Source of the DNA: Escherichia phage PNJ1809-36
Sequence record: MT944117.1
Reading direction: 5' to 3' (one strand)
Length of the DNA stretch: 64,000 bases
The position numbers and the translations under genes are program-made. Position 1 is the stretch's first letter. Each line of letters opens with the position of its first letter. Positions 6,748 to 52,741 of this stretch are shown piece after piece. The notes under the pieces are model-generated. The model did no database searches. It was given only the letters and a program-made list of their open reading frames with translations, and had not been told where the DNA came from.

Positions 6748-7695
6748 CTACAAACTTTCAATAACCTGGCGTCGCAACTCGTTTGCATCTGCCAGATTAT
6801 AATGTGTTCGAACATGTTCAGCCAAGAACAAGCCACGATCTTCCCGATAGTTTGGATTGCGAAGAAGCTTAACAATTTCGTAATGCCATTCTGCTTTATT
6901 CTCTGCGTAAGCAACAGCGCGAGCATCTACAGGGTTAAAATAAGGTAATACCTTAGAACAAACAATTGGAATACCTTTTGCTCCAGCTTCCAGGATTTTG
7001 AGATTACTTTTACAATTATTAAAATCATTATCTACCAAAGGAGCTATAGCAATAGCATGACTTTCGTAAACACTCATGTAATTATCTAAATCTTTTACAG
7101 CGGCTTTATATTTGGCATTTGGTAAATTTCTGCGAATCTTAATCCACTCTTGTCCCGTGATGCTTTGTGATGCTTCATATCCCGCAATAGTAAGAAGTTC
7201 ATCATCGAAAGTATTAGAGACTAGTCGTAAGTCTGGTTCGTGACTAGCACCGCCAGCCCATACAACAGGGGTACCGGATGAACGATCATTTGACAAAGTG
7301 AATTGTCCGCTATCAAAAGGAAGTGCATTTCGGATCACAACAACATTCCTATTTAAGTGACGGATCTTATATGCCAAATATTCCGTAGTCACAATAACCA
7401 CATCAGCAAGCTTAACCATAGCTACAATAGCATGAGTGTTTGACTCGTATAGGCTTGCTAAATAATGTTCTGGATTAAGTTGGTAAAAATCATCTAAGTC
7501 TACAACAACCTTAACACCTTGACGTTTCAAAGATAAAACGTATTCTGCACCTTTAGAGTGGATACGGTTAAACACAACAACATCTTTCTTAGGTTGAATA
7601 TTATTGTTGTTAAATGGTATAACAATACGATGATAGTCACAACCGCTGTGAGGTTTTGCATCAATTTTTAGTTTAGACCATTTTTTATTTGACAT
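6748..7695 (-). CDS. glycosyltransferase-like protein, GT-B type, paralog 2
   Basis: 315 aa; tandem paralog of 5796..6740; KSNLKILEAGAKGIPIVCS. Confidence 0.45.
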   Translation of the reverse strand: MSNKKWSKLKIDAKPHSGCDYHRIVIPFNNNNIQPKKDVVVFNRIHSKGAEYVLSLKRQGVKVVVDLDDFYQLNPEHYLASLYESNTHAIVAMVKLADVVIVTTEYLAYKIRHLNRNVVVIRNALPFDSGQFTLSNDRSSGTPVVWAGGASHEPDLRLVSNTFDDELLTIAGYEASQSITGQEWIKIRRNLPNAKYKAAVKDLDNYMSVYESHAIAIAPLVDNDFNNCKSNLKILEAGAKGIPIVCSKVLPYFNPVDARAVAYAENKAEWHYEIVKLLRNPNYREDRGLFLAEHVRTHYNLADANELRRQVIESL

Positions 7696-8368
7696 GTGCT
7701 AGTGCCTCCTCATAGGAAATTCGGATTTTCCCATTTTTAATATCCTCTAAAGATGCTTTATATTCTTCCCAGTTAATCCCAATAGCAGCCTCTTTCTCTT
7801 CTTTTGTCAGGTTAGCAAAAGGCATAGGATTGTTTCCAAAAACATCGTCTGGGTGGATATAAGCCATGATACGAAGTGGACAAGGTGTTGCCTGAATACC
7901 ATGATTCAAACCAGCAGCTTGCAAACGGTGTCCCCATTCAGCATCTTCAAAACCATAACCGTGAGTGTAAGGACGGAAATAACCCATCTTCTCAACAACA
8001 GCACGAGAATACATTGCAAATTGACACATTGCAAGTTCCCAGAGAATAACTTCTCCTTTGCTTCCAACAACTTTATCTTTGAAGTACTCCGGCATACCAA
8101 AGAAATCCCATCCTCCAGAGACAGCTTGATCTACAAAATATGTTTCCCATCCCTCCATGACTGGGTAGCAATCGTCGTCAAAAATAAACCAATAATCATA
8201 ACCTTCTTCATAAAACTGGTGCATAAGTTCATTCCTGGCATAAGCTACACCTTTACGATCTGGATCGTTGAATACTCGAAAATCTGCACGTGGATCTGTT
8301 ACAAGGTAGTCTTTAAGTGGACGGACACCTACAGTGATAACACCCACTCCGATTTTAATATTTTCCAT
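7685..8368 (-). CDS. glycosyltransferase, GT-A (DxD) type
   Basis: 227 aa; DxD motif WFIFDDDCYP and YGFEDAEWGHR resembling the GT2-family (W/Y)G-x-ED-x-E...R motif; AGGAGAG SD. Confidence 0.5.
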   Translation of the reverse strand: MENIKIGVGVITVGVRPLKDYLVTDPRADFRVFNDPDRKGVAYARNELMHQFYEEGYDYWFIFDDDCYPVMEGWETYFVDQAVSGGWDFFGMPEYFKDKVVGSKGEVILWELAMCQFAMYSRAVVEKMGYFRPYTHGYGFEDAEWGHRLQAAGLNHGIQATPCPLRIMAYIHPDDVFGNNPMPFANLTKEEKEAAIGINWEEYKASLEDIKNGKIRISYEEALAHVK

Positions 8369-37016: not shown

Positions 37017-37053
37017 TATTGATTTCAGTTTAATAGGAAGAGAATTGTTAGAT

Positions 37054-38052
37054 ATGCCAGTAAAGAAGAGTATTGAAACATATATGGAAGAATGTAAGCC
37101 GATAGCTGAGGCTAAAGGGATTACCATTCTCGGCACGTATGGAGAAGATAAAGGTGTGCATACGAAGATGATCAATCGTTGTGAGCATGGTCATGAATGG
37201 AATACTACAACGTTTCACAGTTTTAAAGATGGTCGAGGTTGTCCTAAGTGCGCCTACAGGGAACGTTCGAAAAAGAGAAGCAAAGCTATCACTATTCCAG
37301 ACCAGCAACACATACAAGATTTTATGAAGGTAGGTAAATTTAAGGAAGGCACTATTTTCACCAATACAGGAGAACGTAAAGGGTGTGATATAGTATGGAT
37401 GGTTGAATGTCCTGTTTGCTCTCATGATGAATATGTGGAAGCTGGGGTGTGTGATGGTAAATTCTATGCTACCGGAAGTCATCTTAAACGTGGGTGTCTC
37501 CCTTGCCGCTGTTCTACAAGTTACAAATACACAGAGGATCAGACCACCTATAGAACAAGAAAGGAAGTAGAAAGGAGAGGATATATATGGGTAGGATGGA
37601 TCGGTAAACCTTCAACAATGGGTAAGTTTAAATATGGATGTAAGGAGCACGGGGAACAGATAGGGCGTGCAGATGGTTTGCTACATAAGGGGAGTGGGTG
37701 TCCGCAGTGCGGGGGCCAAAACCAACAACAATGTTACATTAATCATATTTATGATGAAGATGGTATTCTTTGTGCACTGAAGTTTGGTATTGCCAATAGT
37801 AGTGATCGCCGTATCAAAGAACAGAATAGCCGCAATGTGTTTACTATGAGACAAGTTCAAGTGTGGCAGTTCCCCACTGTGAAGCAGTGCAAAAATTCAG
37901 AAAAGTATTGCAAAAAGGTGTTAGACACAGAAGCAGTGAGCAAATATGCTATGCCAGACGGCTACACAGAAACAGTGGAGCTATCTTGTCTGGCATCAAT
38001 ACAAAACATTTATAAACTTTATGGTGGAATATTACAGGAGGAAACATGTTAG
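37054..38052 (+). CDS. Cys-rich protein with repeated CxxC pairs (about 332 aa)
   Basis: ORF track trimmed to ATG with AGGAAGAG SD; GCPKC, CPVC, CLPCRC, GCPQCGG suggest several zinc ribbons; fold unknown. Confidence 0.5.
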   Translation: MPVKKSIETYMEECKPIAEAKGITILGTYGEDKGVHTKMINRCEHGHEWNTTTFHSFKDGRGCPKCAYRERSKKRSKAITIPDQQHIQDFMKVGKFKEGTIFTNTGERKGCDIVWMVECPVCSHDEYVEAGVCDGKFYATGSHLKRGCLPCRCSTSYKYTEDQTTYRTRKEVERRGYIWVGWIGKPSTMGKFKYGCKEHGEQIGRADGLLHKGSGCPQCGGQNQQQCYINHIYDEDGILCALKFGIANSSDRRIKEQNSRNVFTMRQVQVWQFPTVKQCKNSEKYCKKVLDTEAVSKYAMPDGYTETVELSCLASIQNIYKLYGGILQEETC

Positions 38053-38411
38053 TTGACGTTCAAATTATGCGCAACGAAAGAATGGACTTCTTTGAAGCAG
38101 TAGAGAAACATCTGATCAGATGGGACTATGAATTTGTTCCTGCTGGATGTGGACCAGTAGAGCATTTAGCGGAAGACGATGATGTATACATGATCATTCG
38201 TCAAGTGTACCAGACAGACCAGTGTGAAGAAACTCCCGAACTGATTTTGTTTGAGTGTAAAGATCTTGCAAAATATTTTGACTATGGCGGAAAAGAGGGT
38301 CATAATCTCTCCAGATACAATAAACGTCTACTTATCTTAGACTACATGCGGAACAACAAACACAAACTCATCGACGCAGACGCAGTTTATGGCTACTGGT
38401 GGATGGATTAA
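38046..38411 (+). CDS. hypothetical protein (121 aa)
   Basis: ORF track; GGAGGA SD. Confidence 0.45.
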   Translation: MLVDVQIMRNERMDFFEAVEKHLIRWDYEFVPAGCGPVEHLAEDDDVYMIIRQVYQTDQCEETPELILFECKDLAKYFDYGGKEGHNLSRYNKRLLILDYMRNNKHKLIDADAVYGYWWMD

Positions 38412-38424
38412 CAAAGGAGAAACT

Positions 38425-38613
38425 ATGGCACGTTTAGCAGATAACCCTGTATTCTACCCCGTTCTTGATCTTTATGATGAATTGACATATGTTGTGGAGC
38501 GGTATAATTACAATGAAGACCTCTTGGAGACAAACCTTAAAGTAGTTCTGATGAAAGCCTATCAGCAAGGGCAACGTGAAATTTTGGAGAGTATGAAAAA
38601 TGCGAATAACTGA
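38425..38613 (+). CDS. hypothetical protein (about 62 aa)
   Basis: ORF track trimmed to ATG with AAAGGAGAAA SD. Confidence 0.4.
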   Translation: MARLADNPVFYPVLDLYDELTYVVERYNYNEDLLETNLKVVLMKAYQQGQREILESMKNANN

Positions 38614-39142
38614 TGATTATGTATTCTTCTTTTCACATAAAGATGTTTTTAGTAATTGGTATATTGCACCCTTTACAGAAACCGAACCAAGTTACAATCA
38701 GACATTTAATTGTGTCGAACAATACATGATGTGGCGTAAAGCTTTGCTTTTTAATGATCACAACACTGCACAGGCTATTCTGACTCATAGCTTAAAACGA
38801 GAAGATGAGAAGATACAAGCTTATTACAAACGTATGGGTAGGGCAGTAGCAGGTTTCGATAACAAAATATGGGAAGAGAATCGTGAGCGTATTGTTATGC
38901 GAGGTTTATGCTTGAAGTATGTACAGAATCCAGACTTGTATGCCGATTTACGTCTATATCAATACAAAACATTTGTTGAAGCAAGTCCTTACGATAAGGT
39001 ATACGGAATTGGAATGGGGATGTATGAACCAGGGGTGCTAAACCCTGCCACCTGGAAAGGGCAGAATCTTTTAGGCAAATATCATAACAAACTGATCGAA
39101 ATACTTTTCCCAGACAAAATACCGCAAAGACGATATTTGTGA
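38600..39142 (+). CDS. NADAR (DUF1768, YbiA-like) domain protein
   Basis: 180 aa; FFFSHKDVFSNW, NCVEQYMMWRKALLF and ASPYDKVYGIGMG...GQNLLGKYHNKL parallel the E. coli YbiA/NADAR motifs (FSNF, EHYFQAQKF, DAYWGDG...GKNRLG). Confidence 0.7.
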   Translation: MRITDDYVFFFSHKDVFSNWYIAPFTETEPSYNQTFNCVEQYMMWRKALLFNDHNTAQAILTHSLKREDEKIQAYYKRMGRAVAGFDNKIWEENRERIVMRGLCLKYVQNPDLYADLRLYQYKTFVEASPYDKVYGIGMGMYEPGVLNPATWKGQNLLGKYHNKLIEILFPDKIPQRRYL

Positions 39143-39197
39143 TATTTTAACTTTTTTCATTTTTAGAACAAAGGTGTCACTTTGTAGCACAGAAATA

Positions 39198-39234
39198 AGG
39201 CTCCTACAGCACCGTAGAGAGCCTGTTATTTTGT
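39198..39234 (+). terminator. intrinsic terminator after NADAR gene
   Basis: aggcuccuac-AGCACC-guagagagccu followed by GUUAUUUUGU. Confidence 0.5.
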
Positions 39235-39365
39235 CCTATACAAACCCTTATCTTTTTCAGTTTGCATCACTAGGATTCGATCTAAGTGGGTTCCTGAAGG
39301 TTTACCAATAAGATTAAAGGTTATCTCAAATTCCCACTACCTATTATCTCAAAAATCCCTCAAAT

Positions 39366-39431
39366 TATTTAAACTTTTTAAGAATTTACAAAAGTGAAAG
39401 TTGAAAACCAAAATTTAAAGTTTAGGAAAAT
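39366..39431. repeat. direct repeat copy 1 (about 65 bp, AT-rich)
   Basis: atttaaac...tttacaaaagtgaaagttgaaaaccaaaatttaaagtttaggaaaatt, imperfect copy of 39505..39570. Confidence 0.6.
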
Positions 39432-39504
39432 TATCTTAAAATGTTAGATACAAAACAAAACTCAAAAGTCAAGGAAAATTTTAAAAATTTTGCGCGCCCA
39501 CAGT

Positions 39505-39570
39505 ATTTAAAGTTTTTTTGCTTTTACAAAAATGAAAGTACAAAAGCAAAATTTAAAGTTTACAAAAATT
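39505..39570. repeat. direct repeat copy 2
   Basis: atttaaag...tttacaaaaatgaaagtacaaaagcaaaatttaaagtttacaaaaattt. Confidence 0.6.
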
Positions 39571-39610
39571 TATGCAGATGGGAATGAGAAGAGTTCTCAT
39601 ATGGAAATGC

Positions 39611-39631
39611 AAATGATAATGATTCGCATTT
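39611..39631. promoter_or_regulatory. Fur-box-like operator A
   Basis: aaATGATAATGATTcgCATTt versus E. coli Fur consensus GATAATGATAATCATTATC. Confidence 0.4.
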
Positions 39632-39668
39632 AGGTTTATAAATGAGATTGATTCTTATTTGATAAGGT

Positions 39669-39689
39669 AAATGATAATCATTCTCATTT
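39669..39689. promoter_or_regulatory. Fur-box-like operator B
   Basis: aAATGATAATCATTcTCATTt. Confidence 0.45.
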
Positions 39690-39915
39690 AGAGAATGACG
39701 CGCAGGGGCGGTGTTTGTCTCGCGCTCCCGTGTCCCCTCGCCATGTAATAAGAATAACAGATCCAGCCAGGAAAGCAAGCGATTATTTTATCTTTACATT
39801 TCTTTACAAATATATAGCGCCCAGCCTACCGGCGATCAACCTTCCAACCAGCGCCCTGGTATGTTAGCCCCGCCTTTACGCCGTGGGGTGGCGCTTCCTC
39901 TTCTGTATGTAAAAC

Positions 39916-39944
39916 AGTATAAGCCCGATCCCTGGGCTTGTCAA
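39916..39944 (-). promoter_or_regulatory. consensus sigma70 promoter (TTGACA-17-TATACT) firing leftward into ORF-poor GC-rich DNA
   Basis: Minus-strand read TTGACAagcccagggatcgggctTATACT; spacer holds the palindrome agccc/gggct. Confidence 0.55.
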
Positions 39945-39946
39945 GA

Positions 39947-40213
39947 TTATTTTTTGTTTTCTTGCCAGGAAAGGACACCTAACCAAAAATGCATATCGCC
40001 CCGCGCCCCTGGTGGGATCTTGCTTTCCCCGCCGCCACTGCAAGCCCATAAATAACCATCAGCAAACGGATCAAAATGGTCTATCTCTTCCACCTTATGA
40101 TCGCCCAGGTTGAGAACGGTTTCAACCTTTAAGCCCGTTGCGCTTGCTACCTGGTGCACCGTGCCGCCTTGCCAGCCCAATGAGTGCATAAGGTGTAATG
40201 TAGTATTTGTCAT
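39947..40213 (-). CDS. hypothetical protein (88 aa) in GC-rich island
   Basis: ORF track; coding-like composition; upstream promoter TTGCTA-17-TATCAT at 40261..40289 and a GC leader hairpin. Confidence 0.35.
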   Translation of the reverse strand: MTNTTLHLMHSLGWQGGTVHQVASATGLKVETVLNLGDHKVEEIDHFDPFADGYLWACSGGGESKIPPGARGDMHFWLGVLSWQENKK

Positions 40214-40260
40214 GGTGTCGCCCTTTCTTTGTTGTGCGCCCTGGTTGGCGCGGTAGAAAG

Positions 40261-40289
40261 ATGATAGCCCTTTCTTTTATATATAGCAA
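40261..40289 (-). promoter_or_regulatory. sigma70-like promoter (TTGCTA-17-TATCAT) for the 88-aa gene
   Basis: Minus-strand read; followed by GC hairpin gcgcc-AACCAG-ggcgc. Confidence 0.4.
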
Positions 40290-40322
40290 GCAAAAAGAAA
40301 ATAAAAAAGATTGAAAAAGTGA

Positions 40323-40381
40323 TTGACGTTCGCCAGGTGGCGGCATAATATTTACCACGTAGGGCGGCAATGGTGCCGCTC
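40323..40381 (+). promoter_or_regulatory. promoter-hairpin cassette U1 (TTGACG-17-TAATAT, leader hairpin gggcggcAAUGGUgccgcuc)
   Basis: -35/-10 then a GC hairpin at the predicted transcript 5' end, then SD and ATG at 40401. Confidence 0.6.
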
Positions 40382-50372: not shown

Positions 50373-50792
50373 ATGAACATTAAATCAAATAATCCAGCTT
50401 ACTCCTTCGATAACGCTTTTTGTCACGGTAGCGCCGCCAAAGGCTTCGAAATCGATGGTAAATTGGTTATCGTGAACGTTGACGGGGAAGAGGTTGCAGT
50501 ATATCCGGTAAACGATGTTAAAAGCCGTTTACAATGCCGCATGGATGTTACCGCATATCAGCTTGATCCGGTCCGTGTAGTTGCCCTGGTATTAGAGGAA
50601 GAGATCAAAGCAATGCATCATAGTAATAAGTTTATTGGTGACGCGCAGGATAATATGAACGTTTGCCGCCATAAAGTTAATGAAGCCTTGAAAGAATGCG
50701 GTTTTAAGGATCTGATGATTAAACGTGATGAAAAATTCCGCTTTCGTAATGACCTGGCAAACCGGATCTACTCAATCTATGAAGCGTTATAA
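50373..50792 (+). CDS. hypothetical protein (139 aa)
   Basis: ORF track. Confidence 0.45.
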   Translation: MNIKSNNPAYSFDNAFCHGSAAKGFEIDGKLVIVNVDGEEVAVYPVNDVKSRLQCRMDVTAYQLDPVRVVALVLEEEIKAMHHSNKFIGDAQDNMNVCRHKVNEALKECGFKDLMIKRDEKFRFRNDLANRIYSIYEAL

Positions 50793-50805: not shown

Positions 50806-50833
50806 AAGGGCGCACCAAGCGCCCTTTCTTTTT
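50806..50833 (+). terminator. intrinsic terminator, copy 2 of the duplicated 28-mer
   Basis: aagggcgcACCAAgcgcccuu followed by UCUUUUU. Confidence 0.7.
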
Positions 50834-51038
50834 GCCCGAATAATGTTGATAGATTCCGCCTATGAAAAACCGACACAGAACAAAACTGAATAGATCGCGG
50901 TATCGAGCTAATCAACCATTAAACGAATAACCATACCTCCCAGGGTAACAGGTTGTTAGAGAGCCATTTAGAGCGGTTAAAATCGATCAACAACCAACAA
51001 CAAACCATCAAAAACACCCTTTTACCTCCTTTCTAGTG

Positions 51039-51058
51039 CAATGATAACCATTATCATC
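51039..51058. promoter_or_regulatory. Fur-box-like operator C
   Basis: gcAATGATAAcCATTATCatc. Confidence 0.45.
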
Positions 51059-51383
51059 TATCCATGTTTATCTATGCAATATAAGTGCATAACTATAATG
51101 TTGATAATAGTTCGCAACAACTAACTAACCAACAACCTAAAACAATAAGCAAACTAATCATAATCAAAGGAATAATAGCAAGATGATTGATAACGACAAA
51201 CAATCAAACCATGATGAATACTAAGCAAGATAACGATAACACGACAAAACAACCAACTAACGAACAATAACAAACGAAACCATTAAAATAACAACTATTA
51301 GCAAAATAGTGCCTGAATGAAATCATTACAAAACGAATCATTCACAGGATCATCATTAGCACGCTATGCCGGACACATAGCGA

Positions 51384-51511
51384 GCTAATAATAAGCCAAC
51401 TACACCCCAACAATCATAACCATCGGTGATGGTTATTTCTTGTTACTGCGTAGCTTGCAATAATTGCAAGCGTAATGACGCTTACACTTATTGCGCTGGC
51501 TTATTATTAGC
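51384..51511. repeat. nested inverted repeats
   Basis: Outer arms gctaataataagccaac / gctggcttattattagc; inner palindromes aaccatcGGTgatggtt, cttgcaataattgcaag, agcgtaatgacgct. Confidence 0.55.
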
Positions 51512-51826
51512 ATTATATGTAATTACCAAGATCATAACATTAGCGCAATAACAATAATCATTGTGGTAATTACAAGATGAAATAATCGCTATCGCTCAAA
51601 GATTATTAGCAAGATGAATAATTGCACGTAGCAACATGAGCGAATAGCGACAGGTTGCATAGTGTGCACATAGATGTACACGCAGTGTATAAACATACAG
51701 GAAAATAAAGGCTAATCTTTTGGGGGCGAATACTATCGCGTAGCGATATGTTGAGCATCTTCTCTTAAACGTAAATAAAATCAGAAAATTCTTGATTTAT
51801 TTTAATTTTTATGTTAATAAACGTTT

Positions 51827-51845
51827 AAATAATAATCATTCTCAT
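51827..51845. promoter_or_regulatory. Fur-box-like operator D
   Basis: taAATAATAATCATTcTCat. Confidence 0.35.
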
Positions 51846-52006
51846 ATGAATAATAGTCTGCTTGTCATGAGCGGGATTAGTTGACAATGTTCCGTCATAT
51901 GATGAGGTTGCCAAACCATTGATAAATAAGTGTTTGTGTGATTTATAATCAAGCGGCCCACCTTGTCGCTATGTTGGCATGAGCCTTGCATAAGTCATTG
52001 AATACG

Positions 52007-52025
52007 AATGATAATTATTCTCATT
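52007..52025. promoter_or_regulatory. Fur-box-like operator E
   Basis: AATGATAATtATTcTCATT. Confidence 0.4.
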
Positions 52026-52284
52026 CGCATGATATTTGGGAATTGTCGCTGCGTGGACCTGACGGCCCGAAAATTCGCGTTAAGCACTTCTTACGTATGT
52101 GCCATGATTTTTGCCATATGATATTGATTCTACTAGATATTCTTGCCATGATTGCCATGAAACAGGGTGTCCCGAAATAATCTCTCCCTGTAGATATTTT
52201 GGGTTACTTTTTATACAAGAGTGGGGTGTCAAAAATAATTGGTATATATGGGATAATTGATAGGAATCCCCTATGATAATTCGA

Positions 52285-52313
52285 TTGTAATTCCCTAAGA
52301 TTGATCGTATGAT
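52285..52313 (+). promoter_or_regulatory. candidate sigma70-like promoter (TTGTAA-17-TATGAT)
   Basis: About 55 nt upstream of the ATG at 52367. Confidence 0.35.
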
Positions 52314-52366
52314 GTTGGTGATTGATGATTGCCATGAAAGATGGCTAACGATGAGAGGAGATTATC

Positions 52367-52741
52367 ATGCAAGAGAGTAAAAATGTTCCGTTGAGTAGTG
52401 CAACATTGCTTCGCTTCTATAAAGCATGGATTGCCAACTATCCTGCAATGAATCGCACAACGAGTGGCTTATGTGGTTGTCTGGTAGATTATGTAGATGA
52501 TTTTGTTGGTGAGACAACTAGAGAAGAAGATAGAAGATGGCGTGATCATTTGTTGGACCGTTTGAAATATGAAATGAGGAAACAATTTACATGTGCAGGG
52601 CTGGACTACAATCTTCCGTTCAATGCAGATTGCATGGATTACCTTTCAGAGTGTATAAACTTGGCGTGTCATACCAACACGTTACGTCTTCAATGGGTGA
52701 AAGACAGAATCGAAGATGCAAATAATGCTTGCATTGAATAA
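52367..52741 (+). CDS. paralog family C member 1 (124 aa)
   Basis: ORF track; shares FY-x-W...GLC-C-L...EM...AGL...PF...L-x-W-VKDR with 57054, 60283, 61048. Confidence 0.5.
   Translation: MQESKNVPLSSATLLRFYKAWIANYPAMNRTTSGLCGCLVDYVDDFVGETTREEDRRWRDHLLDRLKYEMRKQFTCAGLDYNLPFNADCMDYLSECINLACHTNTLRLQWVKDRIEDANNACIE

Follow-up and report, generated by a model that had tools for sequence, protein, structure and literature searches.

The 64,000-nucleotide stretch of DNA analysed here (the window), from Escherichia phage PNJ1809-36 (record MT944117.1), contains at positions 50,836-52,366 a region that a preliminary description had singled out as free of open reading frames (ORFs). This proved correct: the longest ORF in the region encodes 64 amino acids from a TTG start, whereas 500 composition-matched shuffles gave a mean of 69 (standard deviation (SD) 16), and a scan for tRNA and tmRNA genes found none. 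The 1.8 kb around the region is 96-97% identical at the DNA level to SKA64, vB_EcoM-Ro121c4YLVW and phAPEC8, which are myoviruses of about 150 kb belonging to the genus Phapecoctavirus, subfamily Stephanstirmvirinae. To its left lies a rightward operon, the last gene of which (50,373-50,792) is followed by the intrinsic terminator that closes the operon (50,806-50,833, plus strand). This terminator, with an 8-bp stem containing six G-C pairs and a T tail, was reported on both strands in the window and is annotated at the same position in the phAPEC8 and Schickermooser records. In phAPEC8 the counterpart of the region is an unannotated 1.5-kb gap between the terminator and gene 0018, and most other deposited relatives have no annotation across the homologous DNA. 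Beyond the terminator come a 0.9-kb non-coding right-arm end, a repeat, and a promoter-bearing left-arm start that leads into the first left-end gene. For the reasons set out below, this is very probably where the two genome ends of a phAPEC8-like phage meet, as at a concatemer junction.

A search of phage records revealed that many deposited phage genomes stop inside the region. The records of Schickermooser (Germany), Mt1B1_P17 and BI-EHEC (Indonesia) each have their left end at window position 51,754 and their right end at 52,081/52,082, and each has an exact terminal redundancy, of 329 bp in Schickermooser and 328 bp in the other two; the published value for Schickermooser is 328 bp (Korf et al. 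2019, PMC6563267). In the phi92 record (FR775895.2) the terminal repeats are annotated as PHI92_DTR-L (1-343) and PHI92_DTR-R (148,270-148,612), two identical copies of 343 bp, the right one preceded by about 1.1 kb of non-coding DNA after the last gene, and their boundaries align to the base with the Phapecoctavirus boundaries. PhageTerm gave a repeat of 342 bp for BME3 (PMC12210895), and according to a 2025 paper all Stephanstirmvirinae genomes end in direct terminal repeats (PMC12695924). The same sequence is therefore found at both genome ends in the relatives (the three records and the phi92 copies), from which the ends in the window were placed: the direct terminal repeat occupies 51,754-52,082 (329 bp, 35% GC) and is present as a single copy. 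In this phage group the virion DNA is a linear molecule bearing a short, exact direct terminal repeat. In the window the one repeat copy lies between right-arm and left-arm DNA, that is one copy per junction, which is the layout of a concatemer junction or of a circularised assembly. The idea that the region might be a packaging or recombination site thus gained support, since the physical ends and the direct terminal repeat of the phage group map inside it. The terminal repeat is known biology, and the finding is mostly explained by a phi92/phAPEC8-type terminal-repeat region. The window shares homologous sequence with phi92 and Schickermooser, as well as the order of last right-end gene, terminator, about 1 kb of non-coding DNA, a repeat of 329-343 bp, promoter region and first left-end gene, but its repeat is single-copy and unannotated.

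Both edges of the repeat carry the motif GTTR|AGCM (the bar marks the boundary), which was present in every clade examined. In the window it reads GTTG|AGCA on the left (51,750-51,757, plus strand), with the genome left end starting at 51,754, and GTTA|AGCA on the right (52,079-52,086, plus strand), with the genome right end at 52,081/52,082. More extended versions are also kept in every clade, namely (A/T)TGTTG|AGCM at the left boundary (TGTTG|AGCA in the window) and GAAAAT(T)CGCGTTA|AGCAC at the right (CGCGTTA|AGCA in the window); with TGTTG|AGCM and CGCGTTA|AGCAC found in every relative checked, the ends are fixed and non-permuted. When eleven relatives with complete sequence, from three clades, were searched for GTT[GAC]AGC[AC], all eleven had it at both homologous boundaries, left and right, and the retrieved stretches contained hardly any other copy, chance occurrences being expected at about 0.1 per 1.3 kb. 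The spacing between the two motifs was 329-344 bp in all relatives except one IMG/VR contig (412 bp). On sequence grounds GTTR|AGCM is taken to be where the nuclease that forms the ends, by inference the terminase, recognises or cuts the DNA. The motif also bears on the alternative that the terminal redundancy of the deposited records arose artificially during assembly, the region being an ordinary intergenic spacer. Assemblers can leave overlapping contig ends, and the records of ESCO5, ESCO37, ABPW7 and ESCO13 end elsewhere in the region. However, three laboratories arrived at the same 328-329 bp, the terminal repeat annotated by the phi92 authors has homologous boundaries, the BME3 repeat was sized at 342 bp by PhageTerm, and the boundary motif is kept across genera at the two repeat ends only. 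As these four lines of evidence agree, an artefact was discarded as extremely improbable.

The right arm contains, about 240 bp left of the repeat, a conserved folded element of about 175 nt (51,342-51,514, minus strand). A 17-bp inverted repeat enclosing three palindromes had been noted here and was confirmed: the arms, at 51,384-51,400 and 51,495-51,511, are complementary at 16 of 17 positions, and the palindromes lie at 51,416-51,436, 51,453-51,471 and 51,468-51,483. As a fold, the element has an outer stem of 14 bp, which corresponds to the 17-bp inverted repeat, and a long hairpin; its other parts are an 8-bp stem with a 9-bp hairpin at its tip, followed by a hairpin of 8 bp. In the Klebsiella phages of the subfamily, BLAST picks up no part of the right arm other than 51,355-51,513. 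The element was aligned over 14-15 distinct sequences from Phapecoctavirus, Justusliebigvirus and the Klebsiella group. For the minus strand (15 sequences, three clades) RNAalifold returned 53 pairs in five helices, with 15 pairs changed on both sides, and 99.9% of the 791 cells form standard pairs. Neither the observed pairing nor the observed covariation was reached in any of 500 shuffles, and sliding the partners by 1-3 columns reduced pairing to 23-52%. Between sequences, a hairpin stem passes from GCTATG/CATAGC through GCTACG/CGTAGC to CCTACG/CGTAGG, the outer stem takes the forms AAGCC/GGCTT, AACGC/GCGTT, ACCGC/GCGGT and AACAC/GTGTT, and one hairpin is fully replaced between clades (ATAACCATC to ATTACTATT to GGAATAATC). 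On the evidence of this alignment, the nested palindromes are a strand-specific fold whose structure is kept by compensatory substitutions.

The strand specificity comes from the wobble pairs. G.U is seen at 11 positions of the minus-strand pairing, where the plus strand would have an A.C mismatch, and the reverse occurs at none; three of these G.U pairs are invariant across clades in which the neighbouring pairs covary. The minimum free energy was 13-24 kcal/mol better for the minus strand than for the plus strand in all 14 of the sequences compared, and folding with DNA parameters gave z-scores of -9.9 (minus) and -8.2 (plus). Since G.U pairs are found on the minus strand only, an asymmetry that we regard as decisive, the element acts as a single strand of minus polarity, and may be either a leftward RNA or minus-strand DNA. 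Palindromes serving as double-stranded protein sites or as a cruciform were also considered; these are disfavoured, as the stems change fully between clades and all of the wobble pairs are on one strand. A covariance model built from the alignment had one plausible match in the 64-kb window (197 bits), the only other hit scoring 12.5 bits (E 0.19). No match to Rfam 15 was obtained for the whole window at gathering scores, and at E values up to 10 the region gave nothing credible (best 20.7 bits against a threshold of 39). Pattern scans of IMG/VR recovered only four loci, all from clades already aligned. A metagenome scan with one 15-base pattern was too degenerate to add much, and with two true homologues (L077 and L044) among 120 loci it contributed almost no diversity. 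The preliminary description had offered a long structured non-coding RNA as one candidate for the region; what stands of this is a structured nucleic acid, with strong strand-specific covariation, for the part of about 175 nt, which is not long and may be RNA or single-stranded DNA.

Between the fold and the repeat lies a spacer (51,515-51,753) that is the most variable part of the right arm, with indels and a length of 190-251 nt across clades. It ends in a hairpin, ATCGC-GTA-GCGAT at 51,735-51,747, which stops 6 nt before the left cut site and whose stem changes by compensation to CCGCC..GGCGG in Schickermooser, BI-EHEC, ETEC-TG and phiWec190. At 51,572-51,748 at least two unrelated alleles were found among phages that are otherwise 95-98% identical, one in the window, Mt1B1_P17 and phAPEC8 and another in Schickermooser, BI-EHEC and ETEC-TG, which suggests recombination or rapid turnover beside the cut site. 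In the Klebsiella phages FKP3 and KP2025 one or two extra left motifs (ATGTTG|AGCA), in tandem and spaced 67-69 bp, are located 300-510 nt right of the fold, ahead of the copy that is separated by about 344 bp from the right motif; the extra copies could serve as alternative cut sites or as decoys.

The arrangement resembles the concatemer junction of T7 and T3 in having a short exact repeat and non-permuted ends, palindrome-bearing non-coding right-arm DNA left of the repeat and early host-type promoters right of it. In T7 the packaging signal pacB lies in the unique DNA left of the repeat, and a 'hairpin end' derived from a palindrome is formed as an intermediate; this T7/T3-type intermediate was reportedly described by Chung, Nardone and Hinkle in 1990. 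There is, however, no sequence or protein homology, the window repeat is twice as long, its palindromes constitute a strand-specific multi-branch fold and not a simple inverted repeat, and the phage is a 150-kb myovirus that, judging from what is known of rV5-like phages (PMC3606486), has no RNA polymerase of its own. The mechanism that generates ends with short exact terminal repeats is still called poorly understood (PMC13595956). In the mechanism we propose, replication would give head-to-tail concatemers with one repeat copy per junction, the terminase or an associated nuclease would cut or nick at the two boundary motifs, and the repeat would be duplicated via staggered nicks and strand-displacement synthesis, as proposed for T7/T3-type phages. 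Either as displaced minus-strand DNA or as an RNA transcribed leftward, the fold would act in cis, in cutting or duplication or else during replication of the ends.

Several points weigh against interpreting the region in this way. The ends in the window were transferred from relatives at 94-98% identity, and the 10C3 record, another that begins at 51,754, may owe this start to re-orientation against a reference, no method statement having been found for it. The terminase is a candidate for the cutting enzyme, the cuts may be nicks or double-strand breaks, and any role in packaging of the fold, of the G-poor tract or of the Fur-like boxes described below is putative. Phage rV5 shares the flanking gene (86% DNA identity) and yet has a 2.6-kb non-coding region with neither the element nor the boundary motifs. 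Moreover, a scored search for sigma-70 promoters 5' of the element on the minus strand, made in four clades and excluding the Klebsiella phages, arall and ECGD1, found none that was conserved in position, and the phi92 terminator, unlike that of the window, has a minus-strand tail without T-richness. The last two points also concern the idea that the element encodes a non-coding RNA, small or leader, that is made by leftward transcription starting at the right genome end and acts as RNA, which would be compatible with the position of the repeat. The one-sided and partly invariant G.U pairs, which when conserved are more typical of RNA, and the better folding energy of the minus-strand RNA in every sequence argue for such a gene. 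So do a perfect TATAAT directly adjoining the outer stem on the window's minus strand and, in three other clades, hexamers resembling a -10 element at 10-45 nt upstream; judged from its composition, the C-poor minus strand of the arm would in addition shield an untranslated RNA from Rho. However, no promoter is conserved in position or quality, the last hairpin of the element is not followed by a U-tract terminator, the phi92 counterpart of the terminator at 50,806 is not bidirectional, and no Rfam family matches. Folded single-stranded DNA also tolerates G.T wobble, and the fold is equally significant with DNA parameters. An RNA gene is thus a serious possibility, although one that we would put somewhat short of an even chance.

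Palindromes similar to the Escherichia coli Fur box were found both in the region and elsewhere in the window. Sites of the AATGATAATCATTCTCAT type occur three times in the region and three more times at 39,612-39,688, in a second ORF-free region. The first (AATGATAACCATTATCAT, 51,040-51,057) matches the 7-1-7 unit TGATAATnATTATCA at 14 of 15 positions and is in the same place in phi92 and the Klebsiella phages; the second (51,828-51,845) and third (52,007-52,024) are both inside the repeat, 179 bp apart, and are kept in phi92. In the window as a whole the Fur-like pattern gave nine strand-matches, all in non-coding DNA, compared with 0.21 expected. The six sites match the 7-1-7 unit at 11-14 of 15 positions (five at 13-14, the sixth at 11), one of those in the 39-kb cluster matches the Fur 19-mer GATAATGATAATCATTATC at 16 of 19, and the sites are conserved in phi92 and the Klebsiella phages. 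The likeness to the E. coli Fur box is thus one of consensus (the 19-bp sequence and the 7-1-7 unit), whereas the location differs, the sites being in the terminal repeat and other non-coding DNA of a virulent phage and not before iron-uptake genes. Both clusters are upstream of rightward early-gene blocks, which suggests that the palindromes may be operators controlling early promoters. The protein bound could be host Fur or, as an equally possible candidate, a regulator encoded by the phage that has a similar site. The promoter candidates that overlap the boxes are weak and not conserved. A search of the literature on Fur boxes in virulent phages and for transcriptomes of the subfamily yielded nothing usable.

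The second ORF-free region (39,143-40,320, about 1.1 kb), with its Fur-like sites at 39,612-39,629, 39,642-39,659 and 39,670-39,687, also holds several aaaatttaaagttt-type repeats and a GC-rich stretch. It is located just upstream of a rightward block of small genes that reaches the right genome end, and the genes before it (37,045-39,142) encode a CapR homology domain (PF21817, E 1.5e-23) and a NADAR domain (PF08719, E 4e-36).

The boundary motif, the fold and the Fur-like boxes are unmentioned in the accessible papers and database records examined, a comparison that did not take in the phi92 genome paper. As far as we found, all three appear to be new, and their functions are putative. A joint reading can be offered tentatively, as something we consider possible but would not expect to hold in full. 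In it, the minus-strand fold would be a new family found throughout the Stephanstirmvirinae, either a cis-acting single-stranded element or a non-coding RNA, that is required for duplication or processing of the repeat or for priming of end replication, and host Fur would be recruited to the boxes in the repeat and in the second early control region, so linking early expression or end processing to iron status, or titrating Fur. The end positions themselves were already known for the subfamily, and that part of the work mainly corrects an unannotated record. The addition lies in specific candidate features, open to mutation, for the cutting and duplication of short exact terminal repeats: the cut-site motif at the two boundaries, the strand-specific fold at a distance of about 240 bp, and the hairpin ending 6 nt short of the left cut. 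As phAPEC8-like and phi92-like phages are common in phage-therapy collections, their true ends and cis signals matter for genome engineering and rebooting, and Fur-like sites in the repeat of a virulent phage would, if bound by Fur, provide an unexpected link between host iron status and infection.

To the right of the repeat is the left-arm leader (52,083-52,366, plus strand), a promoter-like stretch of 284 bp before the first left-end gene, which has its ATG at 52,367 and a ribosome-binding site, GAGAGGAG, at 52,353-52,360 (plus strand). The leader contains one good sigma-70-like site, TTGCCA-18-AATAAT (52,152-52,181, plus strand), and a block at 52,223-52,276 (plus strand) that is kept as far as phi92. 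The sigma-70 scan as a whole showed no excess (15 sites against 15.4 in shuffles). TGCCATGA had been described as recurring here four to five times. Four exact copies are present (52,100, 52,144, 52,153 and 52,330) where about 0.06 would be expected locally, the whole window having 8 against 2.3 expected, but the fifth exists only in the form of variants (TGCCATATGA at 52,112 and TGGCATGA at 51,975). It belongs to a looser family, TTGNCATGA, with five copies on the same strand at 51,862-52,337. Neither is conserved in phiWec190, EF1-1 or phi92, and TGCCATGA is also not conserved in phiWec179; TGCCATGA is therefore not a core part of the end machinery. The possibility that it represents a set of -35 elements was rejected, only one of the five TTGCCA hexamers having a usable -10.

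Short repeats also enter the proposal that the region is or contains a replication origin, in which an initiator would bind to the candidate iterons ATTAGCA and TTGNCATGA, the DNA would be opened at the AT-rich beginning of the terminal repeat, and priming or helicase loading would take place at the minus-strand hairpins. ATTAGCA is present four times in 310 bp (0.22 expected), always in one orientation and accompanied by the related ATTAGCG; the five TTGNCATGA sites are clustered, the stretch at 51,770-51,850 is AT-rich, and folded strand-specific DNA is reminiscent of single-strand initiation signals. The preliminary description had likewise listed an origin among its candidates. However, neither GC skew nor AT skew has an inflection in the region, the sole inflection of cumulative skew in the window being at about 33 kb, where gene orientation switches; no DnaA box was found in the region, TGCCATGA and TTGNCATGA are not conserved in the relatives named above, and no initiator gene was identified adjoining it, a Pfam search of the flanking small proteins having given no match. 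An origin was left without support by these results and is considered unlikely.

Most relatives have two paralogous small genes after the repeat, with roughly the first 11 codons in common (ATGCAAGAGAGTAAAAATGTTCCGTTGAGTAG). Comparison of window positions 52,367-52,741 with the pairs in Schickermooser (614-1,316) and phAPEC8 (7,022-7,724) showed that the window has one paralog only, and a gene of about 0.3 kb is missing from it or has been recombined out.

The remaining part of the right arm is dominated by a G-poor, A/C-rich tract (50,986-51,345, plus strand; A 47%, C 22%, G 9%, T 22%). The statement that the top strand is almost free of G and T at 50,900-51,360 was overstated (A 44%, C 21%, G 12%, T 22%; A+C 66%), although the A/C-only runs quoted for it do exist. 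The A+C maximum of the whole window is in the tract, at 0.80 per 100 nt (51,196) and 0.72 per 300 nt (51,113), compared with a window mean of 0.51 (SD 0.04). Depletion of G on the plus strand of the right arm is kept across genera at 9-14% G (phi92 9%, Klebsiella relatives 13-14%), whereas depletion of T is not, the arm being T-richer in phi92 (34% T) and the Klebsiella phages. A/C-richness as such is kept within the genus, and an excess of A persists alongside the G depletion in phi92 and the Klebsiella phages. A G-poor plus strand would keep readthrough transcripts sensitive to Rho, or a leftward RNA resistant to it; alternatively, the composition may reflect cytosine deamination of a minus strand that is often single-stranded. 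The preliminary description had also listed a sponge for an RNA-binding protein; in this reading the A/C-rich plus strand would be transcribed as an unstructured RNA that is bound, for example, by Hfq at (AAN)n repeats. Runs such as CAACAACCAACAACAAACC and AACAACTAACTAACCAACAACC and the scarcity of G in the tract would suit such a function, but the A/C-richness is not conserved (as in the T-rich arm of phi92), 3-nt periodicity is weak, and the tract lies directly 3' of a strong terminator with no promoter found. In addition, RNA that is G-poor, C-containing, unstructured and untranslated is the expected substrate for Rho termination. Given the strong terminator upstream and the Rho-prone sequence, a plus-strand sponge RNA is very unlikely.

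The right arm starts with a block (50,839-50,985) that is about 80% identical to phi92 and other Justusliebigvirus members, the rest of the arm having diverged between these phages and the window. Within the block, TTGATAG..CCTATGA (50,846-50,865) is repeated at 52,257-52,276, just 5' of the first left-end gene (repeat family D5).

Large non-coding regions of this kind are also known from rV5-like phages (Vequintavirus), in which the non-coding region holds a 459-bp terminal repeat (LL12, PMC6658697). The two groups are alike in having a large ORF-free region with the genome ends beside a homologue of the gene at 50,373-50,792 (PMC3606486; PMC6658697). However, the non-coding part of rV5 has no detectable similarity to that of the window, gave no hit with the covariance model and contains neither GTTR|AGCM nor the Fur-like motif, and the flanking transcripts converge in rV5, unlike those of the window. 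The gene itself encodes a protein of 139 aa without a Pfam match and corresponds, at the identity given above, to rV5 ORF164 (rV5 106,618-107,037), which adjoins the unrelated 2.6-kb non-coding region of rV5; it is a conserved genome-end neighbour in both subfamilies.

Finally, a 20-mer, GTAGGGCGGCAATGGTGCCG, occurs seven times on the plus strand of the window (0 expected), at 40,359, 41,888, 43,719, 45,157, 45,908, 46,780 and 48,308. It is confined to 40.3-48.3 kb and is never found after the repeat. In the phAPEC8 record it is labelled 'PHIRE promoter', and two of the four annotated phAPEC8 copies are directly downstream of a sigma-70-type promoter of the TTGACA..N17..TAATAT type. The 20-mer is itself a hairpin, GGCGGCA-ATG-GTGCCGCC, and from its sequence and position is more suggestive of a conserved stem-loop in the 5' leader of early mRNAs than of a promoter.

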